In this document: positions 9,716-43,062 of the stretch, piece after piece | Layout: each line of letters starts with the position of its first letter | How positions within the stretch are numbered: the first letter of the stretch is position 1 | Assembly: GCA_963763145.1 (NCBI GenBank) | Contig: CAVXMZ010000010.1 | Span: 22,141-86,140 of the forward strand | DNA: 64,000 bases | Source: an uncultured Acidobacteriaceae bacterium | Lineage (GTDB): Bacteria > Acidobacteriota > Terriglobia > Terriglobales > Acidobacteriaceae | Direction of reading: 5' to 3' | Notes under the pieces: generated by a model | Databases searched by the model: none | The model's input: the letters and a program-made list of their open reading frames with translations, nothing else | What the model was told of the DNA's origin: nothing | Translations under genes and position numbers: made by a program

Positions 9716-12247
9716 CTACCCGATCATTTTGCGTTGATCGCCGATGCGGCGCTCGCGTTCGTTGGCGAACCGCTCCACCCCAGCGAAAATCGAATCGGGA
9801 TCGAGATGCGCTTCTGCGATCACTTCCAATTCGAGTCCGCCGCTTCTCCAGTGATTGTCGAAGTCGGAGGTGAGGGAATACTCGTCCGTCAACGGACCTA
9901 GGTTGCGCAGCGGCCACATGCGTCGCGTGCCCGTCGATACCACCATCAAATCGTAGCGGGCTTCGGGCGGCAGCACGGAATCGCGATAGGCTTGCGGCTG
10001 GCGATCGAACAAATCCTCGCTGATCGCCGCGATCACCTTCACGTTCACTCCCGCAGCCTCGAGTTTCGGCAGAACTTTCACCAGGTTCACCGTGGAACTC
10101 GATCCTTGTGCGATCACGTAACCGTGGCGCGGCTTGTCCGGCGCGAAATCGCGGATCACGTACAGGCCTTTTGCCGCAGCCCGCAGATCGGTGTCGGCGA
10201 AACGACTGCGGTCCGCGACCGCGAAGTCGGGTCGCGCCACTTCCAGCGTAATGATGCCCACGCGCGGATCGCGCGCCGCGATCTCAGCCGCCGCGAAATA
10301 GCCGGGCGCAACGTCGTTGTAATCCCAAAAGCTCAAATTAATCACCTGACCGCGCGGGAACAGCTTCCATACCTGCGGCGCGAAGATGCCGAAGTGGGTG
10401 CGCGCGTCAGCTGCGGTTTCAGGGCCGGAGTGCGCGGTAAGAATGTGCAGCACGCCGACACGGAATTTGCTGTCCTGGTTTTGCTGACTCCAGACCCGCG
10501 CCGGAGTGTACATCAGTGGCGTGAACGCTCCGTAGGTGCCGCTCAAAGCCCAAACGCCGGCGAATTTTTGGGGATCCACGGAAGCACTTTGGCTCACCAG
10601 TCCGATGGCGGTAGAAACATTGCCCGCTTCCTGAATGGGAGCTTTCAAGCGCGTGCCCAGCGGGTTCTCCGTGGGACTGTAGTGCCCCCACAAACTGCCG
10701 TGCTCCACGTTAATGGACTCCGAAAGGTCGGCGGCCACAGTGAAGAACCGTCCGTCGGTGACGTAATTCATCCACTTGATGATTTCGGAAATCGCGCGCC
10801 GCGCTCCGGCGACCTCGCCCGGCTTCTTGAACAGCGCAATGCTGACTTGCTTCTCCGCACCGGAGAGCGCATTGCGAATCGAGATCTTCTGCGGTTCTTC
10901 CGGTAGCGCCGCGACGCGCAGGCGATCGTCGAGGAACGGATCGCTCGTGGCTGAGATGCGCAACTTCACGTCGTCGCGTACGGTGTCGCCGATTTCCACC
11001 AGGCGATCGGCGAGGCGATCGCCCAATCCGTTGCGGTCGAGCAGCGACATCACCACGTCGATGTTCGTCTTGAACTGGATCAAGCGCTCGCGATTGTCGG
11101 TAACCGGACCCTTGCGAATGCCTTCGAACTCCACGCCGTAATGCTTCTCGAACGTCTGTGCCAGCGCGACAAAATACTCCGAGTTCATCTTCAGCGCGTA
11201 GGGATGGCTGGGATAACTCACCAATTGATCGCCATTGTAACCGGGAATTTTTCCGTCGACAGCGGTGGGCCAGTAGCCCTTGATGGTCTTGCCGATCGCG
11301 ACGATGGGACGGCGGTCCTGCGGATCCACTTCGTCCATGGCTTTCAACGCCGCAGTCACCTCACCGTAATGGTTGCCGTTGGACATGGTGAAGACGTTCC
11401 ATCCATACGACGTCCATTGATTCACCAGATCGTAGACCTCGCAGAAGTGCGAGGCGATTACGCCGCCTATCTTGCCGCCGATCAGGCAGTCGTCGATGCC
11501 CGCGTTGTTGTCGGAAACCATCACCCGCAAACGTTTGCCTACTTGCAGCGCAAGCGCCTGCGTCTTCAACTCCTGCGCGTGACCTTCGGTGAGCGCGAAT
11601 TCGCCTTCCAGCGCGATCACTTTCGGCGAGGCTGGCGCGCCCACGATATCCCAGAACGCCGCTTTGCCTGCGGCCGTCGCGATGCCGATGCCCGATGGCC
11701 CGCCGTTCACGTCGTTGGTTAGGTCGGTGCTTTCGGCATGTCCCATGAGCGCCCGAATGCCACGGCCCTTAGCTTGCGCGAATAGCGGATTGTCTTCCAG
11801 CCCCGTTTCGCGCAGCAGCGTCTTCAACGCGCCCGCGCCGCGCCGGAATCCCAGCGCGTCGATCGGCAGCATGGCGACATGCGGGTCGACGTGATAACGC
11901 GGATCGCCGGTCTGCTGATACTTGCGATACAGGGCCTGGCCCATGATCATCCACAGCGCATAGCACGTCGGGACCGAGTGGCCCGCCGCCATCATGAACT
12001 TGTCGGAGTATGGATGTTTCGGCCGGCGGTAATCGTAACGGAGTCCGCCGTTTTCAGGGCCGGCCAAGTGGGCCGCAACATTGTACGGTGTGTAGGCGAG
12101 CGGTCCGCCCAGATGCCCGGTCTGCGCGTAATTTCCCAGCAGTACCAGGGTCATGCAGGTCATGTATCCCACGTCGTCGAGCAGCGGATCGTAGGCCAAA
12201 GGTTGTTGCCGGGAGGGAGAAGGAACTACGTGAATGAGCGAAGTCAT
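9716..12247 (-). CDS. Transketolase-family thiamine-diphosphate enzyme (long, 843 aa, divergent)
   Basis: TGHLGGPLAYTP resembles the transketolase GH(P/L)GG motif. ALEGEFALTEGHAQE...VSDNNAGIDD aligns by eye to the ThDP/Mg motif GDGxxxEG...DDNxxxID. The C-terminal half looks like the Pyr and C-terminal domains. The specific function is unknown. Confidence 0.55.
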   Translation of the reverse strand: MTSLIHVVPSPSRQQPLAYDPLLDDVGYMTCMTLVLLGNYAQTGHLGGPLAYTPYNVAAHLAGPENGGLRYDYRRPKHPYSDKFMMAAGHSVPTCYALWMIMGQALYRKYQQTGDPRYHVDPHVAMLPIDALGFRRGAGALKTLLRETGLEDNPLFAQAKGRGIRALMGHAESTDLTNDVNGGPSGIGIATAAGKAAFWDIVGAPASPKVIALEGEFALTEGHAQELKTQALALQVGKRLRVMVSDNNAGIDDCLIGGKIGGVIASHFCEVYDLVNQWTSYGWNVFTMSNGNHYGEVTAALKAMDEVDPQDRRPIVAIGKTIKGYWPTAVDGKIPGYNGDQLVSYPSHPYALKMNSEYFVALAQTFEKHYGVEFEGIRKGPVTDNRERLIQFKTNIDVVMSLLDRNGLGDRLADRLVEIGDTVRDDVKLRISATSDPFLDDRLRVAALPEEPQKISIRNALSGAEKQVSIALFKKPGEVAGARRAISEIIKWMNYVTDGRFFTVAADLSESINVEHGSLWGHYSPTENPLGTRLKAPIQEAGNVSTAIGLVSQSASVDPQKFAGVWALSGTYGAFTPLMYTPARVWSQQNQDSKFRVGVLHILTAHSGPETAADARTHFGIFAPQVWKLFPRGQVINLSFWDYNDVAPGYFAAAEIAARDPRVGIITLEVARPDFAVADRSRFADTDLRAAAKGLYVIRDFAPDKPRHGYVIAQGSSSTVNLVKVLPKLEAAGVNVKVIAAISEDLFDRQPQAYRDSVLPPEARYDLMVVSTGTRRMWPLRNLGPLTDEYSLTSDFDNHWRSGGLELEVIAEAHLDPDSIFAGVERFANERERRIGDQRKMIG

Positions 12248-12447: not shown

Positions 12448-13368
12448 CTAAGTTCCAATCACAACACCGCCGTCCACTGAGATCACCGTTCCATGGATGA
12501 AGCTGGCCTGGTCCGAAGCGAGCCAGAAATAAGCGTTGGCCACGTCTTCCGGAGTCCCTGCCCGTCCCATGGGAGTTCGCGCCACCATGGCTTCCAACAC
12601 CTTGGGCGGCATGGCCCTCACCATGTCGGTCGCGATGAATCCCGGCGCCACGGCATTCACCCGGATCTTGTACTTGCCCAATTCCCGCGCCCAAGTGCGC
12701 GTCATGCCGATGACACCGGCCTTGGATGCCACGTAGTTGGTTTGCCCGAAGTTTCCCAGAAGTCCCACAACCGAGGCGGCGGACAAAATTACTCCGCCTC
12801 CGCCCTTGATCATATGGGGCACAATCGCGCGCGTCACCAGGAAGACGCCCTTCATGTTGACCCCGATTACCGAGTCCCAGGTGTCCTCACTCATGATCGA
12901 CTCGGGACAGCCGCCGTTCCACTTCACCAACTGTGCATCACGAACGATGCCGGCATTGTTGATTAGAACGTCGATGCGCCCCCACCTCTCGACCACTGCC
13001 TCGGCGGCGGCTTCCACAGCCTTTGCGTTGGTAACGTCAACCGCTTGAAATTGACATTCCCCTCCGGCCCACTGGACCGCCGACTCCACTTGAGAAGCAG
13101 TCTTGGCGGAAACGTCCCACGCTGCAATCTGCGCGCCGGCTTCGGCAAAGCGAAGCGCGGTAGCACGGCCTATTCCCGCGGCAGCTCCGGTGATGACCAC
13201 TACTTTCCGATGCTGTTCACGCTCTCTGGCCGGCAGGCGCGCATCATGGAACACAGGTACACCGTCGGGGGTCAGTGCAGTTTGTTGATGAAGGGTGGAA
13301 ATTGTTAGGTTTTCACGCGGAAGGGAAACGTCTTCACTAACGGATTCTTCTTTAACGCGAGGCATCAA
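12448..13368 (-). CDS. Short-chain dehydrogenase/reductase, FabG/PhaB-like 3-oxoacyl reductase, with an N-terminal extension of about 55 aa
   Basis: TGAAAGIGRA (Rossmann TGxxxGxG), NNAGI, and S...YxxSK (NYVASKAG). The start is uncertain, because the extension has no recognisable motif. Confidence 0.8.
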   Translation of the reverse strand: MMPRVKEESVSEDVSLPRENLTISTLHQQTALTPDGVPVFHDARLPAREREQHRKVVVITGAAAGIGRATALRFAEAGAQIAAWDVSAKTASQVESAVQWAGGECQFQAVDVTNAKAVEAAAEAVVERWGRIDVLINNAGIVRDAQLVKWNGGCPESIMSEDTWDSVIGVNMKGVFLVTRAIVPHMIKGGGGVILSAASVVGLLGNFGQTNYVASKAGVIGMTRTWARELGKYKIRVNAVAPGFIATDMVRAMPPKVLEAMVARTPMGRAGTPEDVANAYFWLASDQASFIHGTVISVDGGVVIGT

Positions 13369-13482: not shown

Positions 13483-14073
13483 TCAAGACTTGCGGCGAAG
13501 TTTCCCATTTTGGGAAAGCTTTTTCTTCTTCGCTTTCTTGGACGCACGCCTGGTGAGCAACGATTCCAATTCTTCGACTCTCTGCTTCAGTTCGTCCACC
13601 TCGCTGGCGGTCGTCGCAGGCGCTGGGGTTGCGGTCCGCTGCTCTGCCGGCGGCGCTTGCTCTCCGGCGCCTCGATTTCCATCTCCCGTCTGTCCCAGCC
13701 GCCCCTGTAGAAACTCAAACGGATTCACAGCCGGGGGCAGGGAGCGGTAGGCATTCTGATACATCTCCATCATGCCTTTCATGTAGCGCAAGGCATTTTC
13801 CTGGGTCGCGCGGCCTGAGGCCAGGATCATGTGGCGCAGGACATCGAGAGGAAAAATCGAGTCCGGAGTCTTGGCATCTTCCACCACGATCTGGGCCAGC
13901 ACCAGCCGGGTCACGTCCTCGCCGCTGGCGGCGTCTATCACGCGCAGCTCGTGGCCATCGCGCACCAGTTGCGCCACCTGCTCCTGGTTGATGTACTGGC
14001 TGGTTAAGGTGTTGTAAAGACGCCGGTTCTCGTATTTCTTGATGATCAGGGGCTCAGTAGCAGTTTTTTTCAT
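13483..14073 (-). CDS. phaR: Polyhydroxyalkanoate synthesis repressor PhaR
   Basis: The N-terminus LIIKKYENRRLYNTLTSQYINQEQVAQLVRDGHELRVIDAASGEDVTRLVLAQIV is the typical PhaR DNA-binding and PHB-accumulation-regulatory domain signature. The C-terminus has a Lys/Arg-rich tail. Confidence 0.9.
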   Translation of the reverse strand: MKKTATEPLIIKKYENRRLYNTLTSQYINQEQVAQLVRDGHELRVIDAASGEDVTRLVLAQIVVEDAKTPDSIFPLDVLRHMILASGRATQENALRYMKGMMEMYQNAYRSLPPAVNPFEFLQGRLGQTGDGNRGAGEQAPPAEQRTATPAPATTASEVDELKQRVEELESLLTRRASKKAKKKKLSQNGKLRRKS

Positions 14074-14080
14074 TTTGCTC

Positions 14081-14108
14081 TTGACACGCTGCCAGAAGGA
14101 GGTATGAT
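14081..14108 (+). promoter_or_regulatory. Candidate promoter of the phasin gene (TTGACA-16 nt-TATGAT)
   Basis: TTGACA at 14081-14086, a 16-nt spacer, and TATGAT at 14103-14108. It lies in the phaR/phasin divergent intergenic region, immediately upstream of the inverted repeat at 14115-14143. Confidence 0.45.
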
Positions 14109-14175: not shown

Positions 14176-14781
14176 ATGCCAAATACCTCTAAGTCAAGCA
14201 AACACAGCACAACCGCAACCGCCGCCACCACCACCACTGAGATCGTGGACGTTTTTTCGCCTGTCATCATCAACAGCGTGGAGCAGGTTGCCAAGCTGCA
14301 AAAGCAGACCCTGGACCTGGCCGCCGAACAGAGCGCCGAGTGGCTCGGGGCCTGGAAGCAGGCCTTCAGCTTTTTCCCGGTGACCCCTCCGGCCTACATC
14401 TTCGACGCAGCCAGCCAGGCCGTGCAGACCGCCATTGAAAACCAGAAGAACGCCATCGACTTGATCGTGGAACAGACCAAGTCGGCGGCCGAGATCACCA
14501 CGGTGCGCGCCGAAGCTTACGGCAAGATCGCCAGCGGCGTCACCGCGACCATCCAGAAGTCGGTGCAGCGCACGGTGGAAGCCCAGAACAAGGTCCTGGA
14601 GTTCGCCAGTGAGCAGAACAAGACGGTTTTTGCCGCCGCCAAGAAGCAGTTGGGCGGAGCCACCGGGCCGGCAGCCGCGGTCGTCGACGCCTTCCAGCGC
14701 GGCACCGATGCGGTGATCGAAGCGCAGAAGTCGGTCCTGAACATCGCCTCGCAGCCGTTCCTGGCCAACAGCAAGAACTAA
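14176..14781 (+). CDS. Phasin-like PHA granule-associated protein
   Basis: 201-aa ORF that is Ala/Gln/Lys/Glu-rich and looks helical by composition (LQKQTLDLAAEQSAEW..., AIENQKNAIDLIVEQTK..., VEAQNKVLEFASEQNK...). AAGGAG sits 6 nt before the ATG. The gene lies between phaR and phaEC. Confidence 0.6.
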   Translation: MPNTSKSSKHSTTATAATTTTEIVDVFSPVIINSVEQVAKLQKQTLDLAAEQSAEWLGAWKQAFSFFPVTPPAYIFDAASQAVQTAIENQKNAIDLIVEQTKSAAEITTVRAEAYGKIASGVTATIQKSVQRTVEAQNKVLEFASEQNKTVFAAAKKQLGGATGPAAAVVDAFQRGTDAVIEAQKSVLNIASQPFLANSKN

Positions 14782-14894: not shown

Positions 14895-15341
14895 ATGGGT
14901 GAAGATCCAACTCAGGATGGCAAGCGTTTCGACCCGCTGGACGCTTGGCGAGGCGTGCGCGACGTCTATATGGATGCCTGGTCCAAGAACATGGTCGAAA
15001 TGGTAAACACCGAAGCCTATGCGCAAGCGACAGGAGCGATGCTCGACACGTATCTGACAGCCTCAACTCCATTCCGCGAAGCGCTGGAAAAGGCGATGGT
15101 GAAGACGCTTGAGCAATTGGCGATGCCCTCACGGGCCGATGTTGTTTCGATTGCCGAGCGCATGACCAACATCGAGATGCGCCTGGACGACCTCGATGCT
15201 AAGCTGGACAGTATTCACCGTTTGATCACGCAAGCTGTTGGGCCGCCTCCGCCGCCGCGAAAAGCCCAGCAAGCAGCTAAGGCGCAGCAACCAGCCAAGA
15301 AAACCGTCACAGCGAAGAAAGCTAAGAGAGGAAGAAAGTAG
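14895..15341 (+). CDS. phaE: Small PhaE-type subunit of class III/IV PHA synthase with a histone-H1-like basic tail
   Basis: 148 aa. The LAMPSRADVVSIAERMTNIEMRLDDLDAKLD block resembles the conserved PhaE C-terminal box. Its stop lies 1 nt before the phaC ATG, and AAGGAG precedes the start. The tail is PPPPPRKAQQAAKAQQPAKKTVTAKKAKRGRK. Confidence 0.65.
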   Translation: MGEDPTQDGKRFDPLDAWRGVRDVYMDAWSKNMVEMVNTEAYAQATGAMLDTYLTASTPFREALEKAMVKTLEQLAMPSRADVVSIAERMTNIEMRLDDLDAKLDSIHRLITQAVGPPPPPRKAQQAAKAQQPAKKTVTAKKAKRGRK

Positions 15342-15342
15342 G

Positions 15343-16413
15343 ATGGCAGAAGCCACGGTTATCACCGACCCGTATACCGAGACCGCAGAGCGGCTGAAAA
15401 CTCTCACCAAGGTGATGACTACCAAGGCTGCCATCGCCCAGACGCCGAAAGAATTGGTCTGGACGCTCAACAAGGCCAAGCTCTACCGTTACACCCCGGT
15501 TCTGCCCAAAGAAAAGCGCCATCCGATTCCCCTGGTGCTGGTCTTTGCCCTGATGAACCGGCCTTATATTCTCGACCTGCGTCCCGGTCACAGTTTCGTC
15601 GAGTACATGGTCAATAAGGGATACGATCTCTACCTGCTCGACTGGGGAGCGCCGGGCCTGGAAGACAAGAACCTCAAGTTTGACGACTACACTTTGGATT
15701 ACATGCCCCGCGCCATCCGTAAATTGAAAGCGACCTTCGGCGTGAACCAGTTCAGTCTCCTCGGTTGGTGCATCGGAGCCATACTTACCACAATCTATGC
15801 CGCCCTGCGGGGTGACGAAGACGGTCTGCGTAACTTGATCCTGCTGACTGCGCCTCTGGACTTTTCTAACAGGCAGGGACTGACGTTCGCCCGCTGGACC
15901 GACGAGCGTTACTTCGATATCGACAAGGTGCTGGCCGCCTTCGGCAATATGCCGGGCGAAATGATCGACTACGGGGCAAAGGCGCTCAAGCCCGTGGAGA
16001 ACTACATTGGGAATTACGTGAAGCTATGGGACAACATCGACGATCCGCGCATCGTCGAGTCCTGGCATGCGATGAACACCTGGGTCACCGACAACGTGCC
16101 TTTGGCGGGAGGCGCGTTCCGCCAATTGATAGTCGATCTCTATCGCAACGACAAGCTGATGCGCGGCGAACTCATGATTCGCGGCGAGCGAGTCGACCTC
16201 AGCCGGATCCATGCCAATCTATTGACGGTGATTGCTGAGGACGACCACATTACCCCGTCCTGCCAGTCTGAGCCCATCATGTCGAAGGTGAGCAGCGCAG
16301 ACAAGGAACTGTTTCGGGTCAGGGGTGGTCACATCGGAATCATGGCGGGCAGCGGAGCCAGCAAGTTCACCTGGCCGCACATTGATGGCTGGCTCGCCAC
16401 ACGCTCCAAGTAA
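15343..16413 (+). CDS. phaC: Class III-type poly(3-hydroxyalkanoate) synthase catalytic subunit PhaC (about 356 aa)
   Basis: The size, the alpha/beta-hydrolase pattern and the lipase-like box G-W-C-I-G (GxCxG with the catalytic Cys) all fit. ATG at 15343 (MAEATVITDPYTE...) directly follows the phaE stop. The longer track ORF starting at 15238 overlaps phaE and is rejected. Confidence 0.85.
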   Translation: MAEATVITDPYTETAERLKTLTKVMTTKAAIAQTPKELVWTLNKAKLYRYTPVLPKEKRHPIPLVLVFALMNRPYILDLRPGHSFVEYMVNKGYDLYLLDWGAPGLEDKNLKFDDYTLDYMPRAIRKLKATFGVNQFSLLGWCIGAILTTIYAALRGDEDGLRNLILLTAPLDFSNRQGLTFARWTDERYFDIDKVLAAFGNMPGEMIDYGAKALKPVENYIGNYVKLWDNIDDPRIVESWHAMNTWVTDNVPLAGGAFRQLIVDLYRNDKLMRGELMIRGERVDLSRIHANLLTVIAEDDHITPSCQSEPIMSKVSSADKELFRVRGGHIGIMAGSGASKFTWPHIDGWLATRSK

Positions 16414-16425
16414 GCTCGTCACTCC

Positions 16426-19110
16426 TTACATGTGGTATCCACCGTTCACGTTCAACTCCTGACCGGTGATGTAATCCCCATCGGCGGCAAGGAAAGCAGC
16501 CGCTTTGGCGATTTCCTCCACGGTTGCGAAACGCCCCAAGGGAATCTTTGCCTTGATCTGGGCCGCAATCTCTTCCGGAATGGCATCCACCATTTCGGTG
16601 GAAGTGAATCCCGGCGCAATCGCATTCGCGGTGATGTTGAACTTGGCCATCTCCAGGGCGAGCGTCTTGGTGAAGGCGATGATGCCGCCCTTGCTGGCCG
16701 AGTAGTTGGCCTGGCCGAATGCCCCCATCTGTCCCACGACGGAGCTGATATTGATGATCCGCCCAAACCTCTGATTGACCATGGCCGGCACCGCTGCGCT
16801 GGTGCAATAAAAGGTGCCGTTCAGGTTGGTGTTAATGACGGCCACCCAGTCGTCATCGGTCATCTTGCGCATGCTGCGGTCGCGCGTAATGCCGGCGTTG
16901 TTCACCAGGATGTCCAGGCGCTGCCATTTATCCAGCACTTCTTTAACGATGCGTGCGGCGACGCCCTTCTCGGCGACATCGCCCTGCACCAGCAGGCACT
17001 CGACGCCGATCTCGCGGACTTCTTCAGCCGCAGTCTCTGCTTGTTTGGCATCGGAGCGGAAGTTCAAAGCGATGTTCGCTCCGCGGCGTGCGAGTTCCAA
17101 AGCGATTGCGCGTCCGATGCCGCGCGAAGAACCGGTGACCAGTGCGACCTTACCTGCGAGCGAGGTCGCATTGTAATTTCCATTTCCGCCTGCAATGTTT
17201 GCCATCTCAAGACTCCTATCTTCAGAACTACAACTCACAACCGCGGGATCCACGCGCATCACCACGTAACCGCCAACCGCACCGGCTCCGAAACAAGGTG
17301 TAAAGATACGCATTGGCCGGTCAATTCGCCCTTCTTGTACTGCGTCATGGACAGCCAGAAGAATGCTGGCGGATGACGTGTTGCCCATCCGCTCGATGTT
17401 GAAGAAAATCCGGTCGCCGGGAATGCCGGCAGCCTCAGCCAGAGTGAGAACCATGTTCTTATTGGCCTGATGCGGAACTACCAGATCGATCGCGTCGATG
17501 AGCGACCCCTCGCCGCCGTCAGGGTTGGGAAGCCGGCCCAACTCACTCATCATCACTTTCAGATAGCGAGTCACCAGCGCTTTCACCTCGGGCCCGTACA
17601 CGGTGATGTTGTTGTCGAACTCAGGATTAGGCCAGATGATCGAATTCACCTCCGACCACGGACCGCTGGCATAGGTTTGGAAGTATTCAATGTCTGACGG
17701 CGCGCCTTCAGGTGCGGGGCCAATCACGACCGAGGCTGCACCGTCACCAAAAATCATTCGCGAGGTGCGTACCGTCCCGATCTTGTCGGAGAACTTTTCG
17801 GCACACACCAATAGCACGGGCCGGTCAATCTCCTGTAACAGGCGCACGGCTTCGCCAATGCCGTAAGCCATGCCGGCGCAGGCGGCAACTATGTCGCACG
17901 AATTATGGGTCTGCAACAATCCCAGCTCGCCCGACAGCCAGGTGGCCACCGATGGAATCAATCTGGTGCTGGTGCAACTGCAAAACAGCACGGCGCCGAT
18001 CTCCGCGGGACGCCGCCCGGATTTGGCCAAGGCGCTCTTGGCGGCCAGCAGGGCCATTTCCTCCAGTGGCAATTCGGTATAGCAGCGTTGCTCGATGCCG
18101 GTCTTTTCGCCGATCTCCGCCTCCGTCATGCGCGACCAGCAGTAAGCATGGTTGCGGATGAGGTCCGCATTGGTACAGGGGACCTCGCCTTCGTACACCG
18201 CGATGGCCTCGATGCGGGGCAGGATGGCGAAGCGCTTGCTTACCTCGACCGCGGGATAAGGGGTGATCGGCTCGCTCAAAGCGAGCGTGTCGGGCGCTTT
18301 GCGCTCCTGGCGAACTCGCGGACCCCAGTCAGTGTCTTGCCTGACGCGCTGGATGAACCGCAGCACTTCCTGGTTACGCGGATAGAAGGCAACTACATAA
18401 TCATCGTCCTTCAAACTACTGATTTCGCTTTGCGCGCTGGTCGCCGGGTCCCACGGATATTGGTTGTGAAGGATCATGCACTGCCGCATCAAGGCCTCAA
18501 GTTCCGACACCGGATGCAGGCAGTCCAGCACATCGTTATAGGTGTAGCGCAAGTAATCGGGATCGTAGGAGGTCAGCACACGAGTGCGGTTCCTGGGATC
18601 GGCAAGCGCCTCCTCTACCGTCGGTCGCAGAGGCCGGAGCTCTCCACCAGAGCTGAGTTTATTGCGAAAAACATCGAGCAGAATACCGAAAGCGCGGTCC
18701 TCCAGATCTTCGTCCCAAGCTGAAGGCAGGTCCCAGTAGCCGGCTTGGATAGCAGTCGTGATTGCCGAGTCATCGCGCGGCTTGTACACCGGAAGGAAGA
18801 CATCGTGCTTATGACGAGGCAAGTCACCCCAGCGGGTGGGGCGTTTCTCGTACATCGTCAGCGTGTAGCGATTTACCCAAAGCCGGTTCAGCACCAGATC
18901 GCGGCAAAGCTCATACCGGTTCTTGTACTCGCCGGCTTGCAGGCGGCCCGCAATCTCCACATCGGTGAAGGCTTTCTCGCCAAAGTCACGCCGGATGACG
19001 GCGGCAAACTGCTTTAGCGTCTTGAAAACAGAAAAGTCCAACTCGGGGAAAAAATTGCCCGGGAAGACAATGCGTCCGTGAGAATTGATAACGAAAGGTT
19101 TCAGCGACAT
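16426..19110 (-). CDS. Three-part fusion protein: unknown N-terminal domain (about aa 1-295), KASIII/FabH-like condensing enzyme (about aa 296-625), and FabG-like SDR ketoreductase (about aa 651-894)
   Basis: A single uninterrupted 894-aa ORF. KASIII triad context: VAACAGMAYG (Cys411), VVPHQANKN (His547), MGNTSSAS (Asn577). SDR: VTGSSRGIGRA, NNAGI, NYSASKGG. I recognised no motif in the N-terminal domain. Confidence 0.8.
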   Translation of the reverse strand: MSLKPFVINSHGRIVFPGNFFPELDFSVFKTLKQFAAVIRRDFGEKAFTDVEIAGRLQAGEYKNRYELCRDLVLNRLWVNRYTLTMYEKRPTRWGDLPRHKHDVFLPVYKPRDDSAITTAIQAGYWDLPSAWDEDLEDRAFGILLDVFRNKLSSGGELRPLRPTVEEALADPRNRTRVLTSYDPDYLRYTYNDVLDCLHPVSELEALMRQCMILHNQYPWDPATSAQSEISSLKDDDYVVAFYPRNQEVLRFIQRVRQDTDWGPRVRQERKAPDTLALSEPITPYPAVEVSKRFAILPRIEAIAVYEGEVPCTNADLIRNHAYCWSRMTEAEIGEKTGIEQRCYTELPLEEMALLAAKSALAKSGRRPAEIGAVLFCSCTSTRLIPSVATWLSGELGLLQTHNSCDIVAACAGMAYGIGEAVRLLQEIDRPVLLVCAEKFSDKIGTVRTSRMIFGDGAASVVIGPAPEGAPSDIEYFQTYASGPWSEVNSIIWPNPEFDNNITVYGPEVKALVTRYLKVMMSELGRLPNPDGGEGSLIDAIDLVVPHQANKNMVLTLAEAAGIPGDRIFFNIERMGNTSSASILLAVHDAVQEGRIDRPMRIFTPCFGAGAVGGYVVMRVDPAVVSCSSEDRSLEMANIAGGNGNYNATSLAGKVALVTGSSRGIGRAIALELARRGANIALNFRSDAKQAETAAEEVREIGVECLLVQGDVAEKGVAARIVKEVLDKWQRLDILVNNAGITRDRSMRKMTDDDWVAVINTNLNGTFYCTSAAVPAMVNQRFGRIINISSVVGQMGAFGQANYSASKGGIIAFTKTLALEMAKFNITANAIAPGFTSTEMVDAIPEEIAAQIKAKIPLGRFATVEEIAKAAAFLAADGDYITGQELNVNGGYHM

Positions 19111-19373: not shown

Positions 19374-19766
19374 TCAATCGAATTCCACCAGGACCTGGTT
19401 GGCCTTCACCGAGTCCCCCGGCGCGACATTTACCGATTTCAACTTTCCCGCCACCGGGGCCGTGACCGCGGTCTCCATCTTCATCGCTTCCAGCATGACC
19501 ATGAGATCGTTGACCTGCAACTGCTGACCGGCAACCACCGGCACTCGCACCACGATTCCAGCCAACGGACTACGGCACAACTTGGCTTCGTTGGTGTCCT
19601 GATTCAGAGACGAACCCGGTTTAGGGGGCGTTCGCAATACGGTCGATTGAATCGTGGCCGCCGCCGGCGCCGGAAGGTTGTCCTGGTTCTGCGGAGAATA
19701 ATCCTCCTCAGCTATTTCTACTTCCACTTCGTAGGTCTTCGCGTCAATCGAGATTTGCAGTTTCAT
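19374..19766 (-). CDS. Biotin carboxyl carrier protein, transcarboxylase 1.3S-like (about 131 aa)
   Basis: Biotinylation motif LEAMKMET. The N-terminus MKLQISIDAKTYEVEVEI resembles the 1.3S-type N-terminal assembly segment (MKLKVTVNG..Y.V.V.V, recalled from memory). A Pro/Ala linker is present. The start at 19766 is preferred over the track start at 19889. Confidence 0.8.
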   Translation of the reverse strand: MKLQISIDAKTYEVEVEIAEEDYSPQNQDNLPAPAAATIQSTVLRTPPKPGSSLNQDTNEAKLCRSPLAGIVVRVPVVAGQQLQVNDLMVMLEAMKMETAVTAPVAGKLKSVNVAPGDSVKANQVLVEFD

Positions 19767-19812
19767 GGACTGTTCCAGTCGTAAGCTTGCTTCGCTTCGT
19801 GACTCGGGTTGT

Positions 19813-20016
19813 TCAGCGTCGGGTGGGGCCAAGATTGTGCGAACCCTGCACCATTGTCCGCCCCTGGCGCACCCAGCGGCTGACCGCATCCGAATCCGGC
19901 AACGCCTTCACCGAACGAATGCGGACCTTCTTGCCGAGATATTCCGTGACAGCGGCGGCGATAATCGATACCGTCCGGGGCGTAACCTCAACAGACGAGT
20001 TTGACTTCGAATCCAT
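19813..20016 (-). CDS. Small OadG-like accessory peptide (67 aa)
   Basis: VSIIAAAVTEYLGKKVRIRSVK...W.RQGR resembles the conserved C-terminal motif of gamma/delta-type small subunits of biotin-dependent decarboxylases (recalled pattern). It has no clear TM helix. GGGAG precedes the ATG. It lies between the 12S and biotin-carrier genes. Confidence 0.4.
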   Translation of the reverse strand: MDSKSNSSVEVTPRTVSIIAAAVTEYLGKKVRIRSVKALPDSDAVSRWVRQGRTMVQGSHNLGPTRR

Positions 20017-20033
20017 GTTTGCTCCCAGCTCCG

Positions 20034-21608
20034 TTACAGGGGAATCAGCCCGTGTTTCTTGGCTGGCCGAAGCTCCCGCTTGGTGTGCAGCGCCTCTAAC
20101 GCCCGGGCCAGATATCGCCTGGTCTGGGAGGGCTCGATAACGTCATCCACCAGGCGCCGGCCGGCGGACACATACGGGTTGGCAAAAGTCTTGCGATAGA
20201 GTTCGATCAACTCATCCCGCTTTTGCACCTTGTCATCGGCGGCGTCAATCTCATGGCGAAACACGATTTCCGCGGCGCCTTCGGCGCCCATGACCGCGAT
20301 TTCCGCGGTTGGCCAGGCCACCACGCGGTCGGCTCCCAGGTCTTTGCAGCACATGCCGATGTAAGCTCCACCATACGCTTTGCGCAATACAACCGTTATC
20401 TTTGGCACGGTTGCCGCTGAGTAGGCGAACAGGATCTTCGCTCCATGGCGGATAATGCCGCCGTACTCCTGTTCAACCCCAGGCAGAAATCCGGGCACAT
20501 CGACGAAGGTCAGCAAGGGGATATTGAAGGCGTTGCAGAATCGAATGAACCGGGCAATCTTGCTGGAAGCGTCGATATCCAATGCTCCCGCCAGCACGCT
20601 AGGCTGATTGGACACGATTCCCACCGTGCGTCCCTGGATACGCCCGAAGCCGATCACCGCATTCGCCGCGAAGCCGGGCTGGATCTCGAAGAAGTCCTGA
20701 TGGTCAAGCAATGGCTTCAGCACGGTACGGATGTCGTAAGCGATTTTAGATTCCGTTGGGACCAGGTCATTCAGGCTCAGATCGTCCTCCAGGTCCTGGG
20801 TGTAGGGGAGCCGCGGAGGGTCTTCCAGGTTGTTCGAGGGCAGAAAACTCAGCAGACGGCGCCCGAGTGCCAGCGCCCCTTCATCGTCTTCCGCAATCAG
20901 ATGAATGACGCCAGAGCGGTTCATCTGGGCCGCCGGACCGCCCAATGCATCAGCGGTTACGGTCTCGCCAGTTACTTGTTTGATGACTTGCGGACCGGTG
21001 ATGAATATCTGCGCCCGCTTGGTTTGAATGATGAAATCGGTCAGCGCCGGACTATAGGCTGCGCCTCCGGCACACGGTCCGCAAATGATGGAAATTTGCG
21101 GCACAATCCCTGAAAGCATGACATTGTTGTAGAACACACTCGCATAGCCGGCCAGGCTGTCGATGCCTTCCTGCACGCGCGCCCCCCCGGAATCGTTCAC
21201 GAAGATGAACGGACTCCCGGTCTTCAGGGAAAGCTTCATCATCTCGACAATTTTGGCGCAGTGCACTTCGCCGGCCGCTCCGCCGGCTACCGTGAAATCC
21301 TGCGAGGCCAGGTGAACCAGACGGCCGTCAATGGTCGCGCACCCGGTGACGACGCCGTCAGCAGGAATGTCCTTGTCAGCCATGCCAAACAAGGTGGCCC
21401 GATGCTTGGCGAATAGTCCGATCTCCTGGAAGCTTTCGCCGTCGACCAGTTTGTCGATGCGCTCGCGTGCGGTGAGCTTTCCACCCTCGTGTTGCTTCTG
21501 GATACGCTTTGCGCCTCCACCCTCTTCTATCTTCGCGCGCTTCCCGCGAAGCTCAGCGATGCGCTCGGTCATGGTAGCGCTTGCCGGCTTGGGTGTTGCT
21601 GTCGCCAT
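20034..21608 (-). CDS. Acyl-CoA carboxyltransferase (PccB / MmdA / transcarboxylase 12S family)
   Basis: 524 aa. Typical blocks are KLTARERIDKLVDGESFQEIG, VTGCATIDGR, FVNDSGGARVQEG, GPCAGGAAYSPALTDF and AWPTAEIAVMG. AGGAGG precedes the ATG. Confidence 0.93.
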   Translation of the reverse strand: MATATPKPASATMTERIAELRGKRAKIEEGGGAKRIQKQHEGGKLTARERIDKLVDGESFQEIGLFAKHRATLFGMADKDIPADGVVTGCATIDGRLVHLASQDFTVAGGAAGEVHCAKIVEMMKLSLKTGSPFIFVNDSGGARVQEGIDSLAGYASVFYNNVMLSGIVPQISIICGPCAGGAAYSPALTDFIIQTKRAQIFITGPQVIKQVTGETVTADALGGPAAQMNRSGVIHLIAEDDEGALALGRRLLSFLPSNNLEDPPRLPYTQDLEDDLSLNDLVPTESKIAYDIRTVLKPLLDHQDFFEIQPGFAANAVIGFGRIQGRTVGIVSNQPSVLAGALDIDASSKIARFIRFCNAFNIPLLTFVDVPGFLPGVEQEYGGIIRHGAKILFAYSAATVPKITVVLRKAYGGAYIGMCCKDLGADRVVAWPTAEIAVMGAEGAAEIVFRHEIDAADDKVQKRDELIELYRKTFANPYVSAGRRLVDDVIEPSQTRRYLARALEALHTKRELRPAKKHGLIPL

Positions 21609-21658
21609 GTTGGACCTCCTGGGTCGATTCGAAATCGGAGCCTTGATTAAGACCAGGC

Positions 21659-23167
21659 TTACTGCACCGGTCGGACCGTGACGCTGTGTTCCTCACCGCC
21701 AACTTTGACGATGTAGGTTCGGGATTCTGCCGGTGTAGCCTCGCCGCTGACGGCTGTTTCCTGGTGAGATTCGGGGATGCCTCGCGCTTCCCTCGATAAG
21801 GTCGGTGCATCCTTCGACCCTGCGGTTCGCGCCTGGAAGAACCGTGCTGCGACATTCGGAAACATGGCGTAAGTCAGCACATCTTCATCGCTGCCGTTAC
21901 TGCCGGCCGCTGATGCCTCGGTGCGCCGGTTTTCCCAGGATGGCTCCAGCAAGTCAGCCGGACGACAGGTGATCGCGGCCTTGTTCTGGCGGATCGCTGC
22001 CTGGCGCATGACTTCTTCGTCTCTTGCCCCAGGAGTCGCCCCGTAATAGCCGAGCATCAGGTCGGCGAACTCACTGGTGATCGTGTTGTATTTCCCTTGC
22101 AGAACATTGAACATTGCCTGGGTCCCGAGGATTTCACTCGCCGGGATGGCGAGCGCAGGATAACCAGCGTCCCGGCGAACATTTTGGATTTCTTCTGCCA
22201 CCTGAGCGAGCAACTGAGGCGTACCCTGGCCCTTCAGTTGGTATTCCATGTTCAAGACGAGGGCTGCCGGTATGTGATGCTGGAAGGTCTCCGGCTCAAC
22301 CGCGACGTGCTGAGCATAAAATTCGTCGTACCTTGGCCGCACTGTGGCGATATGTTGCTTTACGCGATGCAGGCGTTTGGTGTCGAGGCGTGAGTCGAAT
22401 CCGGTACCCTCCAACATCGCAACCAGACTCTCGGTCGGGTTGTGGCCGTGGCCCAGCGACAGGGCGCTGATTGCCGTATCTACAATGTCGCATCCGGCTT
22501 CGATCGCCTTCATCAGCGAAACCATGGTCACGCCCGTCGTTGAATGAGTATGGACGCTAACCAGGGTGTCGCTTCCACATCTTTGTTTGATTCCCTTAAC
22601 CAGGTCGTAGGCCGCCTGCGGCTTGAGCAGACCATCAACGTCCTGCACGCAAATAGAGTCGCATCCCAACTCTTTAATCTGCTGCGCAATGTTGAGAAAC
22701 GCCGGGACCGTGTGCACTGGACTTGGGCTGTAGCAGATCGCGCCCTGAGCATGTTTGCCGGCTTTTTTCACGGCCTCAACGCTGGCCCGCAAGTTACGCA
22801 CGTCGTTCAATGCGTCGTAAATGCGGAAGACATCAACGCCATTCAGCGCCGCCTTCTCTACAAAGCGGCTGACAATAGAGTCGTCAAAGTTCCGATGCGC
22901 AACCAGGTTCTGCCCACGCAGCAGCATTTGCAGTCTGGTCTTGGGCAGCAGTTTGCGATAGGTCCGTAGCCTCTCCCATGGATCTTCATTCAGGAAGCGG
23001 ATGCTGGAATGAAATGCCGTTCCGCCCCAACACTCCAGCGACCAATAACCCGCGTTGTCCAGGTCTTCAAAGACGGGTGCGACATCATCGAGGGCCATGC
23101 TGGTTTTCAGAAGGCTCTGCTGGGCTTCGCGCAACAGCAATTCGGTGACTTCCACGGTTCGTGCCAT
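21659..23167 (-). CDS. Transcarboxylase 5S / oxaloacetate decarboxylase-alpha-like carboxyltransferase subunit without a biotinyl domain; non-canonical active-site motifs
   Basis: HMGL-like barrel blocks: YWSLECWGG, RFLNEDPWERLR, QMLLRGQNL, VDVFRIYDALND, KKAGKHAQGAICY, HTHSTTG, AISALSLGHGHNPTES. The C-terminus is TYIVKVGGEEHSVTV. ATG at 23167 (preceded by GAAGGA) is preferred over the TTG at 23188. Confidence 0.85.
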   Translation of the reverse strand: MARTVEVTELLLREAQQSLLKTSMALDDVAPVFEDLDNAGYWSLECWGGTAFHSSIRFLNEDPWERLRTYRKLLPKTRLQMLLRGQNLVAHRNFDDSIVSRFVEKAALNGVDVFRIYDALNDVRNLRASVEAVKKAGKHAQGAICYSPSPVHTVPAFLNIAQQIKELGCDSICVQDVDGLLKPQAAYDLVKGIKQRCGSDTLVSVHTHSTTGVTMVSLMKAIEAGCDIVDTAISALSLGHGHNPTESLVAMLEGTGFDSRLDTKRLHRVKQHIATVRPRYDEFYAQHVAVEPETFQHHIPAALVLNMEYQLKGQGTPQLLAQVAEEIQNVRRDAGYPALAIPASEILGTQAMFNVLQGKYNTITSEFADLMLGYYGATPGARDEEVMRQAAIRQNKAAITCRPADLLEPSWENRRTEASAAGSNGSDEDVLTYAMFPNVAARFFQARTAGSKDAPTLSREARGIPESHQETAVSGEATPAESRTYIVKVGGEEHSVTVRPVQ

Positions 23168-23579
23168 GTGACGTTCCTTCTGAGCCAATATTCGGGTTGC
23201 GTCAAACCAGGCGTGCTTGTTCCGCCGAGGCGACTAGCAGACTACGACACTAGAGTCCGAAACCCCATTGCCGAACAGAAATCCAGCCTAAGAAACACCT
23301 GGGTCGCGATTGCAGCAAGTGCTGATAACGCAACGGCGCCCGATACTTGTGTTTATAGTGGCACCACCGCCCGCAGGTCAAAAGTGATTCATGTCACAAA
23401 GTCCCGGTATCGCATCACAGAAATCGGGGTGGGGTAATACTCCGCAGTGGCAAGCCGTTTCCGGTGGCTGGCCGTAAGCCCTGGAGCGAATCGCGCGGCC
23501 TTCAAGTTGCGCATCACAGACCCTCCCGCAGTCTGTGAGATATAATCGCCGCCGACTTTCACAATCCAAGGTGGCGTTT

Positions 23580-25127
23580 ATGATATCGACGCTCACTCCG
23601 CTGGAGTTTCTTGCTCGCAACGCCAGCGCCTACCGCGACTGCACGGCCGCCGTCGACGGCGACCGGCGCTTCACGTACTCCGAATTGCAGCATCGCGTAC
23701 ATTCTTTCGGCGCCGCGTTGCAGCAGTCTGGCATTGCGCCCGGAGACCGGGTTGCTGTGTTGGCACGCAACGGAATCCTGCCGCTGGAAGCGCACTTCGC
23801 TGTCCCACTGATCGGCGCAGTGCTGGTCCCGCTCAATATTCGGCTGCAAAGCGGTGAGTTGGCCACGATCCTGAACCACAGCGGCGCCAGAATCCTGCTG
23901 GGCGATGCTGACCTCCTCGCACCTCTGTTGACAGCGCGCGCGGAGACTCCGCAAGTCGAGCGAATCGTCTCCGATTACGAATCTTTTCTCAGCGAGAGCC
24001 GCAGCCCCGTTTTGCCGCACTTGCCGGAGGAAGAGGACGTGATCTCCATTAACTATACGAGTGGCACGACCGGCGTTCCCAAAGGCGTGATGTACACGCA
24101 CCGCGGAGCATTTCTCAACGCCATTGGTGAAGTGGTTGAACACGGGCTGTCGTACCGGTCGGTTTATCTGTGGACGCTGCCCATGTTCCACTGCAATGGC
24201 TGGTGCTTCCCCTGGGCAGTCACGGCCGTCGGAGGGCGCCAGATATGTCTGCCGGAAGTGAACGCGGAATGCGCCGTCAAGCTGATCGAGAGGGAAGGTG
24301 TTACTCATCTCTGCGGTGCGCCCATCGTGGTACGGACGCTAACGGAATACTGCTCGCGCCAGGGGATTCGTTTCCGCTCGGGACTGAAGATGGTGATCGC
24401 GGCTGCGCCTCCACCGCCCGCCGTGATTCGGGCTGCCGAAGAGGTTGGTATCCATTTGACCCACGTCTATGGGCTCACCGAGACCTATGGGCCGCACTCG
24501 GTCTGTGCCTGGCATTCGGACTGGGACGACGCGCCGCTGGAAGAACGTGTGCTGCTGAAGGCGCGGCAGGGTGTTCCGTATTTAGTTTTTGGAACCGATA
24601 TGCGAGTTGTGGATGAAGACATGCGAGATGTTCCTGCTGACGCACGCAGCGTAGGAGAGGTCGTGATGCGCGGTAACAATGTGATGCTGGGCTACTACCG
24701 CGATCCTGAGGCAACTGCAACCGCCTTCCGCGGCGGCTGGTTCCACTCCGGGGACCTGGCCGTGATGCATCCGGATGGCTATATCGAAGTGCGTGACCGC
24801 TCGAAGGACATCATCATCTCTGGAGGAGAGAACATTTCCTCGCTTGAGGTGGAGCGCGTGTTGTATGAGCATCCTGCTGTACTGGAGGCGGCGATTGTCG
24901 CCCAACACGACGAGAAGTGGGGTGAGGTGCCGCACGCCTACGTGTTACTGAGGGAAGACGCCGTGGTCAGCGAACAGGAGTTGATGGCCTTCTGTCGCGA
25001 ACGTTTGGCTCATTTCAAATGCCCGAAAGCGGTACACTTTGGTGCATTGCCCAAGACCTCAACCGGCAAGATCCGCAAGAACGTGCTGCGCCAACAAGCG
25101 CGCGCCGCAGTCGAAGGAGCGTCGTGA
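23580..25127 (+). CDS. AMP-forming acyl-CoA synthetase / fatty-acid-CoA ligase family
   Basis: AMP-binding motif INYTSGTTGVPKGVMYTHRG, plus YGLTET, GWFHSGD and the final PKTSTGKIRK. ATG at 23580 is preceded by AAGGTGG. Confidence 0.88.
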   Translation: MISTLTPLEFLARNASAYRDCTAAVDGDRRFTYSELQHRVHSFGAALQQSGIAPGDRVAVLARNGILPLEAHFAVPLIGAVLVPLNIRLQSGELATILNHSGARILLGDADLLAPLLTARAETPQVERIVSDYESFLSESRSPVLPHLPEEEDVISINYTSGTTGVPKGVMYTHRGAFLNAIGEVVEHGLSYRSVYLWTLPMFHCNGWCFPWAVTAVGGRQICLPEVNAECAVKLIEREGVTHLCGAPIVVRTLTEYCSRQGIRFRSGLKMVIAAAPPPPAVIRAAEEVGIHLTHVYGLTETYGPHSVCAWHSDWDDAPLEERVLLKARQGVPYLVFGTDMRVVDEDMRDVPADARSVGEVVMRGNNVMLGYYRDPEATATAFRGGWFHSGDLAVMHPDGYIEVRDRSKDIIISGGENISSLEVERVLYEHPAVLEAAIVAQHDEKWGEVPHAYVLLREDAVVSEQELMAFCRERLAHFKCPKAVHFGALPKTSTGKIRKNVLRQQARAAVEGAS

Positions 25128-43058: not shown

Positions 43059-43062
43059 GGCG

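Follow-up and report, generated by a model that had tools for sequence, protein, structure and literature searches.

A conserved fusion of an orphan domain, a KASIII-type condensing domain and a ketoreductase encoded next to polyhydroxyalkanoate synthase genes in Acidobacteria

We analyzed a 64,000-nucleotide stretch of a contig from an uncultured Acidobacteriaceae bacterium (CAVXMZ010000010.1, positions 22,141 to 86,140; hereafter, the window, with position 1 at its first letter). A single gene at 16426-19110 of the window encodes an 894-amino-acid (aa) protein that joins an orphan N-terminal domain (hereafter, N-domain), a condensing domain of the KASIII (FabH-like) type and a ketoreductase (KR) of the classical short-chain dehydrogenase/reductase (SDR) type. 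Judging from its sequence and genomic context, it appears reasonably probable that this fusion protein supplies monomers for polyhydroxyalkanoate (PHA) synthesis independently of the acyl carrier protein (ACP), acting as an NphT7-like acetoacetyl-CoA synthase coupled to an acetoacetyl-CoA reductase and replacing the PhaA/PhaB pair. Several lines of evidence lead to this reading: the intact condensing triad, the loss of ACP-docking residues, the association of the family with two non-orthologous malonyl-CoA-producing systems in two phyla, the pairing with a KR, the linkage to the PHA synthase PhaC, and the near absence of thiolase genes in the vicinity.

Architecture and conservation of the fusion protein

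The fusion gene consists of the following parts:
16426-19110, minus strand: fusion gene (N-domain, KASIII, ketoreductase), 894 aa, with an ATG start and the stop codon included (16426-16428), from the list of open reading frames (ORFs) and the translation
18331-19110, minus strand: orphan N-terminal globular domain, aa 1-260, alpha/beta, from the AlphaFold2 model and conservation
18220-18330, minus strand: linker 1, aa 261-297, disordered at first, then conserved and Pro-rich where it leads into the KASIII fold
17227-18219, minus strand: KASIII (FabH-like) decarboxylating condensing domain, aa 298-628, from Pfam, PDB and Foldseek matches and the catalytic triad
17155-17226, minus strand: linker 2, aa 629-652, an Asn/Gly-rich spacer of variable sequence with an internal Met, from an alignment of 40 homologues and a predicted local distance difference test score (pLDDT) below 50
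16429-17154, minus strand: classical SDR ketoreductase, aa 653-894, FabG/PhaB-like, from Pfam, NCBIfam and PDB matches

The initial annotation placed an uninterrupted three-part ORF at 16426-19110 and left the strand unstated. The position and the integrity of the ORF are borne out (894 codons from an ATG, one polypeptide), and the gene lies on the minus strand; the plus strand of the same segment contains stops throughout. The matches in Pfam (ACP_syn_III at 406-468, ACP_syn_III_C at 539-619 and adh_short at 654-846, with adh_short, adh_short_C2 and KR together spanning 654-893) and in NCBIfam reproduce the three-part layout, and every motif quoted in that annotation is found at the residue given there. 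No PP-binding or acyltransferase domain is among the Pfam matches of the protein, and neither the DS[LIVM] nor the GxDS phosphopantetheine motif occurs in it, in agreement with the original impression that there is no ACP domain or phosphopantetheine attachment site.

The length and architecture of the fusion protein recur in more than 120 protein clusters (75-96% identity), and comparison with nine homologues shows a large excess of synonymous over non-synonymous codon differences in all three domains (for example, against the homologue from locus L010, 133 synonymous and 28 non-synonymous differences in the KASIII domain, and 96 and 9, respectively, in the KR). Both linkers evolve faster than the domains, and linker 2 is the fastest evolving segment. 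Because the same architecture recurs in so many clusters and the synonymous excess extends to all domains, the gene encodes a genuine single polypeptide that is subject to purifying selection in all three parts. An identical protein sequence is present in public collections, encoded on an NCBI/ENA contig of 110.8 kb, and the members of the same 90% identity cluster, which come from metagenome-assembled genomes (MAGs) of Candidatus Korobacteraceae, are annotated as FabG or KASIII. The structural model of the full-length protein is moderately confident (pLDDT 75.4, predicted template modeling score (pTM) 0.66), and FabH structures are the sole matches that it retrieves with Foldseek.

Judged by these domain matches, the fusion belongs to both the KASIII and the classical SDR superfamily. 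The KASIII domain is recognized by Pfam (PF08545, E = 3.3e-10; PF08541, E = 6.2e-21), matches FabH sequences in the PDB with E values down to 3e-34 (Vibrio FabH2), and superimposes on FabH structures with Foldseek template modeling scores of 0.77-0.88. For residue mapping, the E. coli FabH sequence, verified against 1hn9, was aligned with 42 members of the family. Cys411, His547 and Asn577, located in the motifs AACAGM (409), PHQAN (546) and GNTSSAS (576), align to C112, H244 and N274 of E. coli FabH and are retained in 41-42 of the 42 members, so that the condensing triad, described as intact in the initial annotation, is conserved across the family. The same domain falls under the curated FabH cut-offs, with 127.8 bits against 292.1 for TIGR00747 and 157.3 against 249 for NF006829. 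The positions equivalent to R249, K256, K257 and K214 of E. coli FabH, which we take to be those involved in ACP docking (Zhang et al. 2001), are occupied by N, E, A and A, respectively; the first three replacements are found in 33-35 of the 42 members, and that at the K214 position in 26. By both the curated thresholds and the ACP-docking residues, the KASIII domain is not a bona fide FabH; as far as the alignment tells, it has lost the ACP-docking surface while keeping the decarboxylating triad.

The signature motifs of the KR, TGSSRGIG (659-666), NNAG (737-740) and YSASK (803-807), were noted at the outset and proved to be family-wide features: TGxxxGxG, NNAG and the catalytic Ser-Tyr803-Lys807 are conserved in 37 of 37 members. 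The NADPH-binding Arg (R15) is kept as well, and the domain is probably NADPH-dependent. Its score exceeds the cut-off for a FabG subfamily model (NF009466, 250.6 against 222) and is below those for TIGR01830 (294 against 297.75) and TIGR01829 (270 against 302.1). The closest solved relative by sequence is the (3R)-hydroxyacyl-CoA dehydrogenase 2et6 (E = 2e-81), followed by FabGs and acetoacetyl-CoA reductases. Of the two arginines that we take to mediate ACP docking in FabG, R129 and R172 (Zhang et al. 2003), the latter is replaced by Phe in 35 of the 37 members. The replacement of the FabH docking residues and of FabG R172, along with the sub-threshold FabH scores and the near absence of ACP-like ORFs in the neighborhood (see below), suggests that the fusion enzyme is ACP-independent.

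The N-domain was initially reported to match nothing recognizable, and all searches support this assessment. AlphaFold2, with an alignment of 75 sequences, predicts an alpha/beta domain with confidence (pLDDT 86.6, pTM 0.79). There is no match in Pfam or NCBIfam even at E = 10, none below E = 0.5 among the PDB sequences (phmmer, and hmmsearch with a profile), and none below E = 1 in Foldseek searches, the best hits being at 1.2 in the PDB and 2.1 in BFVD. Scanning 23 diverse N-domains against Pfam and the PDB, singly and as a profile, likewise gave no consistent similarity. Across these 23 members, down to 26% identity, P22, W78, R81, W94, D96, L128, A206, R209, V239 and P244 are invariant, and about 40 further positions, many of them charged or aromatic, are nearly invariant. 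The family comprises 370 clusters at 50% identity, and in all of these, the N-domain is located N-terminal to a KASIII domain. The initial annotation had allowed that this might be a known, commonly fused domain: it is commonly fused, to this particular KASIII subfamily, in at least 543 species-level genomes, and it corresponds to no described domain. We also considered the N-domain as a candidate for the missing N-terminal part of PhaE, because the PhaE-like protein encoded nearby (see below) is only 148 aa long; this candidate was rejected, given that PF09712 does not match even at E = 10 and that the domain is globular alpha/beta.

Of the two linkers, linker 1 is modeled with pLDDT below 50 at 261-278 and 78-95 thereafter, that is, a disordered stretch of approximately 261-280 gives way to an ordered lead-in at 281-297, with nearly invariant P281, P284, V290 and F294, that continues into the KASIII fold at its first strand. 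Linker 2 was quoted in the initial annotation as SLEMANIAGGNGNYNATSLAGK, starting at residue 633, and its internal Met was taken there as a vestige of a lost stop/start junction between two genes. This Met, about 20 residues ahead of the SDR core, is kept among close relatives only and is missing in distant three-domain members, such as P0241, in the 40-homologue alignment; it is weak evidence of a fusion of two former genes. That such a fusion took place is supported instead by comparative data, namely, the existence of two-domain N-domain-KASIII proteins (hereafter, N-KAS) and of the KR as a neighboring gene.

Gene neighborhoods across the family

From the at least 543 species-level genomes in which the N-domain was found, the 80 best-matching loci were kept. 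These come mostly from Terriglobales (Korobacteraceae, Sulfotelmatobacter, Acidoferrum), with Binatia and Methylomirabilota represented as well. The proteins take two forms, a three-domain one of about 880-900 aa and a two-domain one of about 620-680 aa. In the window, the three-domain gene is surrounded by the following genes:
12448-13368, minus strand: stand-alone FabG-like SDR beside phaR, from family searches
13483-14073, minus strand: PhaR, repressor of PHA synthesis (PHB_acc_N, E = 1.6e-25; TIGR01848, 98.9 bits)
14176-14781, plus strand: 201-aa Ala/Gln-rich protein, probable phasin-like granule protein, from position and composition only
14895-15341, plus strand: 148-aa coiled-coil protein, probable short PhaE-like second synthase subunit (weak PHA_synth_III_E match, E = 0.0023)
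15343-16413, plus strand: PhaC, a PHA synthase of a class III-like type, in convergent orientation to the fusion gene; the ORF is open from 15238, with the likely start at ATG 15343
19374-19889, minus strand: biotin carboxyl carrier protein (BCCP), 1.3S-like, containing the biotinylation motif EAMKM; translation probably begins at Met42 (nucleotide 19766)
20034-21608, minus strand: carboxyltransferase closest to the 12S subunit of Propionibacterium transcarboxylase (1on3, E = 1.4e-209; TIGR01117, 755 bits)
21659-23188, minus strand: subunit resembling transcarboxylase 5S and oxaloacetate decarboxylase alpha (NF008984, 723.5 bits; Pfam HMGL-like and PYC_OADA)
23535-25933, plus strand: acyl-CoA synthetase (23535-25127; NF006020, 673 bits) and enoyl-CoA hydratase (25019-25933)

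Directly upstream of the fusion gene, on the same strand, lies a complete transcarboxylase-type set with 5S-, 12S- and 1.3S-like components (19374-23188), and from the downstream side, a plus-strand PHA operon, from which phaR diverges, converges on the fusion gene. PhaC scores 340.8 bits with TIGR01836 (cut-off 365.3) and contains a GWCIG lipase box and a GGHIG motif. The PhaE-like protein is far shorter than canonical PhaE and matches only the last approximately 80 positions of the PhaE model; the phasin-like protein has no family match in Pfam or NCBIfam. The initial annotation overlooked this decisive context, that of a PHA synthase operon on one side and carboxylase genes on the other; its guess that the N-domain might serve in granule association pointed to the right area of biology.

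To assess synteny, the window proteins were compared by tblastn with 84 fetched loci, a neighborhood being defined as 10 kb and a locus considered complete with at least 7 kb of flank on both sides. PhaC is encoded in 55 of the 60 loci with such flanks. In all 50 complete loci with an in-frame three-domain gene, it lies no more than 10 kb from that gene and is accompanied by homologues of the PhaE-like and phasin-like proteins and, usually, PhaR. Among all 84 loci, the PhaE-like, phasin-like and PhaC homologues co-occur in the same 67, a PhaR homologue is present in 60, and 57 have a BCCP homologue at a distance of up to 10 kb from the fusion gene. A 12S-type carboxyltransferase is found in 38 of the 50 complete three-domain loci. 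The same PHA cluster is present in two Binatia MAGs (L047, L048) and also in a separate three-domain lineage (L088/L089; 56% N-domain identity), without a carboxyltransferase in the latter.

Thiolase-like sequences are rare around these genes. None of the three thiolase PROSITE signatures is matched anywhere in the 64-kb window and, in the 87 loci scanned with PROSITE, only L058 (three signatures) and L031 (the acyl-enzyme signature only) contain thiolase-like sequences; the remaining matches to looser thiolase patterns are due to chance or to a FabF-type synthase. ACP-like ORFs were found neither in the window nor, with one exception, near the gene in about 95 loci. No acpP, fabD or fabF gene is adjacent to the fusion gene, and the Acidobacterial loci show no conserved gene for a thioesterase, an ACP, a cyclase or a tailoring enzyme.

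The two-domain forms provide an independent view of the family. In all four actinobacterial loci with long flanks, N-KAS adjoins a gene for a single-chain, eukaryote-like multidomain acetyl-CoA carboxylase (ACC) of 1825-1882 aa, in which biotin carboxylase, BCCP, ACC_central and carboxyltransferase domains follow one another (L092, 10026-15674; L093, 1-5273; L094, 10000-15612; L095, 2377-7866); for two of these loci, the source assemblies carry the names Pseudonocardia bannensis and Rhodococcus zopfii. We found no paper describing this pairing in the literature searched. A carboxylase of the same architecture, SACE_4237, has carboxylase activity with acetyl-CoA as well as propionyl-CoA and is a source of malonyl-CoA (PMC6491548), and this type of ACC is the essential source of malonyl-CoA for fatty acid synthesis in S. 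erythraea (PMC6491548). Thus, the KASIII domains of this family are genetically coupled to two non-orthologous carboxylating systems in two phyla. They are also paired with a (3R)-type KR, either as a fused domain or as a neighboring gene. A stand-alone SDR is encoded near N-KAS in L091, L092 and L093 (46-48% identical to the fused KR in L092 and L093), directly downstream in L091, directly upstream in L093 and just past the carboxylase gene in L092; the L091 arrangement, with the SDR directly after N-KAS, is the one expected before the fusion. In L086, N-KAS, PhaC (505 aa), an SDR and an acyl-CoA synthetase form an overlapping operon, in that order; a metagenome scan for relatives of this form yielded one 3-kb contig. 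In L095, two PhaC genes and a MaoC dehydratase lie within 8 kb of N-KAS and the multidomain ACC. A small alpha/beta hydrolase adjoins the genes in L092 and L093. In L004, L085, L087 and L090, the neighbors are uninformative or the contigs are short.

Several apparent departures from the three-domain architecture turned out to be spurious. In L002 and L003, gene callers yield 322-aa and 566-aa products, which would suggest a natural split with the N-domain as a gene of its own; however, an in-frame stop (10967-10969 in L002) replaces the codon of the nearly invariant Trp325, so the apparent split is due to either a mutation or an error in the sequence and not to a natural separation of the domains. 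Frame shifts within the gene were also observed at other long-read MAG loci (L037, L041, L052, L058, L074, L079). The KR seemed to be a separate gene in L067, L073, L075 and L078, and this candidate was rejected as well because the fused KR is present in these loci along with an extra stand-alone copy. These copies, 78-80% identical to the fused KR of the window (12727-13464 in L073 and L075, 13761-14495 in L067, 9003-9740 in L078), lie beside the three-domain gene and seem to have arisen by recent duplication of just the reductase part.

Several other features of the window were observed in passing. The stand-alone SDR at 12448-13368 has copies, 71-91% identical, in the same place in close relatives, and in L001 and L088 a different SDR directly follows the fusion gene. 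The spacer between phaR and the phasin-like gene contains a near-consensus sigma-70-like site (TTGACA, 16 nucleotides, TATGAT; 11 of 12 matches; 14081-14108, plus strand); in the promoter and terminator scan of the region, counts were not above those in shuffled sequences, and this was the sole well-placed site. An 843-aa protein encoded at 9716-12247 (minus strand), with weak matches to transketolase N- and C-terminal domains, is possibly a pyruvate dehydrogenase E1-type enzyme of the homodimeric kind, and is not conserved beside the cluster elsewhere. Farther away, the window encodes a Ser/Thr protein kinase with TPR repeats (3539-5875, plus strand), a histidine biosynthesis run with hisF-like, hisA-like, aminotransferase and histidinol dehydrogenase genes (26170-31202, minus strand), and a 1240-aa protein in which an ABC-2-type membrane domain and a peptidase M1 domain occur together, an unusual combination (39450-43172, minus strand).

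Proposed pathway and alternative explanations

The pathway that we infer, including the substrates, product, stereochemistry, cofactor and flux, would proceed in four steps. The neighboring biotin-dependent carboxyltransferase system, that is, the 12S/5S/1.3S transcarboxylase-type set in the window or the giant multidomain ACC in Actinobacteria, would carboxylate acetyl-CoA to malonyl-CoA, in the former case possibly with oxaloacetate as the carboxyl donor through the 5S subunit. A short acyl-CoA primer, most likely acetyl-CoA, would then be loaded on Cys411 of the KASIII domain and undergo decarboxylative condensation with malonyl-CoA, mediated by His547 and Asn577, to yield acetoacetyl-CoA, the reaction of NphT7. 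The fused SDR would reduce acetoacetyl-CoA with NADPH to (R)-3-hydroxybutyryl-CoA, which would be polymerized by the class III-like PhaC together with the short PhaE-like protein, under the control of PhaR and with the phasin-like protein coating the granule. The release of CO2 would render the condensation irreversible, so that PHA could be made at low acetyl-CoA. A KASIII-based route to PHA appears feasible given that an engineered NphT7-PhaB-PhaC pathway, described as a synthetic, 'non-canonical' route to polyhydroxybutyrate (PHB), works (PMC11539682).

Within this scheme, the N-domain would most likely serve as a non-catalytic adaptor that helps to assemble oligomers or docks the protein to the carboxyltransferase or the synthase; a fourth catalytic step is less likely. 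An assembly or docking module fits its constant association with this KASIII subfamily, the lack of a recognizable catalytic fold and the pTM of 0.66 for the full-length model. A bolder and rather unlikely version is that the N-domain is a new-fold adaptor that docks the KASIII dimer onto biotin-dependent carboxyltransferases or the PHA synthase, forming an ACP-free metabolon of carboxylase, condensing enzyme and reductase in which malonyl-CoA is channeled directly into storage polyester.

Several observations weigh against the monomer-supply reading or some of its parts. Of the 50 complete three-domain loci, 12 have no carboxyltransferase nearby, the 5S subunit is present in only 23 of the 84 loci, mostly close relatives, and the 12S-type enzyme classically handles methylmalonyl-CoA and propionyl-CoA and could supply these instead. 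Around the two-domain members in L080, L081 and L090, the first two from Methylomirabilota and unclassified MAGs, the 10-kb neighborhoods contain neither PHA nor carboxylase genes. The FabH residue mapping relies on an alignment at approximately 26% identity anchored on the HQAN and GNTS motifs, and the KR domain keeps the FabG R129. Among the invariant residues of the N-domain are many Arg, Asp, Trp and His, which would fit a ligand-binding or catalytic site too. Finally, every three-domain gene found comes from a MAG or another metagenome source, and the putative replacement of PhaA/PhaB is judged on the 64-kb window and the 10-kb flanks.

Some of the same evidence could be accommodated by a pathway with the same PHA destination and different substrates, in which propionyl-CoA or other short acyl-CoA primers, or a methylmalonyl-CoA extender, give rise to 3-hydroxyvalerate or 2-methyl-branched monomers, and the transcarboxylase supplies propionyl-CoA or methylmalonyl-CoA, not malonyl-CoA. 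We consider this unlikely, but it draws on the closest similarity of the carboxyltransferase to the 12S subunit of methylmalonyl-CoA:pyruvate transcarboxylase (1on3), the presence of a 5S subunit and the ability of SACE_4237-type ACCs to carboxylate propionyl-CoA as well. The FabH pocket position F87 is occupied by Ile in 39 of the 42 members, and a smaller residue here presumably loosens the constraint on primer size; the acyl-CoA synthetase and the enoyl-CoA hydratase beside the cluster could possibly feed acyl-CoA primers. Longer primers are disfavored in that class III-type PHA synthases mainly take C3-C5 monomers. Furthermore, PccB D422 (located via the D422I and D422V crystal variants of S. 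coelicolor PccB) corresponds in the window carboxyltransferase to Ile417, which we take to be the state that admits acetyl-CoA (Diacovich et al. 2004) and which favors this substrate. As for the extender units, the sequence gives no discrimination among them.

Two further explanations were considered. That the protein is a housekeeping FabH-FabG fusion that starts type II fatty acid synthesis on ACP, with the PHA genes as incidental neighbors, is what its public annotation as FabG or KASIII would imply, and the very high conservation of the protein, the KR score of 294 bits just under the TIGR01830 cut-off of 297.75, and the role of the actinobacterial neighbor ACC type as the essential malonyl-CoA supplier for fatty acids in S. 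erythraea are compatible with such a role. Nevertheless, we find it highly improbable in view of the lost FabH docking residues and FabG R172, the KASIII scores far under the FabH cut-offs (128 vs 292; 157 vs 249), the lack of adjacent acpP, fabD and fabF, and the linkage to PhaC in 50 of 50 complete three-domain loci. Quite improbable, too, is a product other than a polymer, such as a free 3-hydroxy acid, a signaling lipid or a polyketide-like starter, or a catalytic N-domain that adds a chemical step. The two-domain members that occur in contexts without PHA genes (L080, L081, L090, L092-L094), the alpha/beta hydrolase in L092 and L093, which could be a thioesterase, and the approximately 10 invariant and 40 nearly invariant residues of the N-domain, many charged or aromatic, make such alternatives possible for some two-domain members. 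For the three-domain form, they are unlikely: PhaC, the PhaE-like and phasin-like proteins and, usually, PhaR adjoin it at essentially all complete loci, the Acidobacterial loci have no conserved thioesterase, ACP, cyclase or tailoring genes, and the N-domain shows no known catalytic fold.

Known systems and biological implications

The proposed reaction has a precedent in NphT7 of Streptomyces sp. CL190, a KASIII-fold enzyme that, according to the paper citing the original work, uses CoA thioesters rather than ACP, irreversibly condenses acetyl-CoA with malonyl-CoA and replaces thiolase (Okamura et al. 2010, as cited in PMC11539682). The likeness considered here is that of the KASIII fold and the proposed reaction. 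NphT7 is a stand-alone protein of about 330 aa encoded in a mevalonate-pathway cluster, whereas the fusion has a 260-aa orphan N-domain, a fused reductase, a natural PHA cluster and a dedicated carboxyltransferase. FabH and FabG, which, according to the same source, have been put to engineered use as providers of PHA monomers (Taguchi et al. 1999, cited in PMC11539682), share with the fusion the folds, the catalytic residues and the succession of condensation and (R)-specific ketoreduction, but are separate proteins that act on ACP; in the fusion, there is one chain, the docking residues are replaced and no ACP gene is nearby. With the PhaA-PhaB-PhaC(E) system, the fusion locus would have in common the expected (R)-3-hydroxybutyryl-CoA for a class III-like PhaC, along with PhaR and phasin-like partners; it differs in having no thiolase in or near the cluster, a proposed decarboxylative, malonyl-CoA-dependent condensation and a covalently joined reductase. 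The Propionibacterium 12S/5S/1.3S transcarboxylase and SACE_4237 closely match neighbor genes of the fusion family, where such genes are linked to that of a KASIII-type condensing enzyme, a pairing undescribed in the literature searched. A condensing domain and a KR also share a polypeptide in type I polyketide synthases and fatty acid synthases, but their condensing domains are not of the KASIII type; because the fusion combines a KASIII-type instead of a KASI/II-type domain with the lack of both an acyltransferase and ACP, it is not, by its domain content, a module of either. Literature searches, with incomplete full-text coverage, turned up no characterized family with this architecture; in the full-text literature searched, where coverage of subscription journals is thin, there is no description of a natural KASIII-based PHA route, of the fusion architecture or of the N-domain. 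What appears new here is the fused architecture and the widely distributed orphan domain, whereas the kind of process proposed, malonyl-CoA-driven, thiolase-free supply of 3-hydroxyacyl-CoA for PHA, is known.

Textbook PHB synthesis begins with a reversible thiolase that requires a high acetyl-CoA/CoA ratio. Metabolic engineers have swapped this thiolase for the malonyl-CoA-dependent NphT7 to gain thermodynamic drive (PMC11539682). If the reading of the fusion as a PHA monomer supplier is correct, nature already uses an NphT7-type design, in a compact, fused form, in hundreds of uncultured peat and soil Acidobacteria and also in Binatia, with separate-gene versions in Actinomycetota, a phylum with cultured members. 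The fusion would then be a ready-made bifunctional enzyme for bioplastic engineering. Apart from any role in PHA synthesis, the N-domain represents a widespread family, predicted to be well folded, that has no detectable relative and is always joined to this KASIII subfamily. Should the N-domain indeed organize a metabolon, a thiolase-independent, CO2-driven route, the natural counterpart of the synthetic NphT7 pathway, would be the principal way in which Acidobacteria of peat and soil make PHA and would operate in several other phyla too. On the monomer-supply reading, with or without a metabolon, screens for phaA and phaB would miss the organisms that rely on the fusion, so that the scoring of PHA potential in metagenomes would change, with a bearing on our understanding of carbon storage in oligotrophic soil bacteria.

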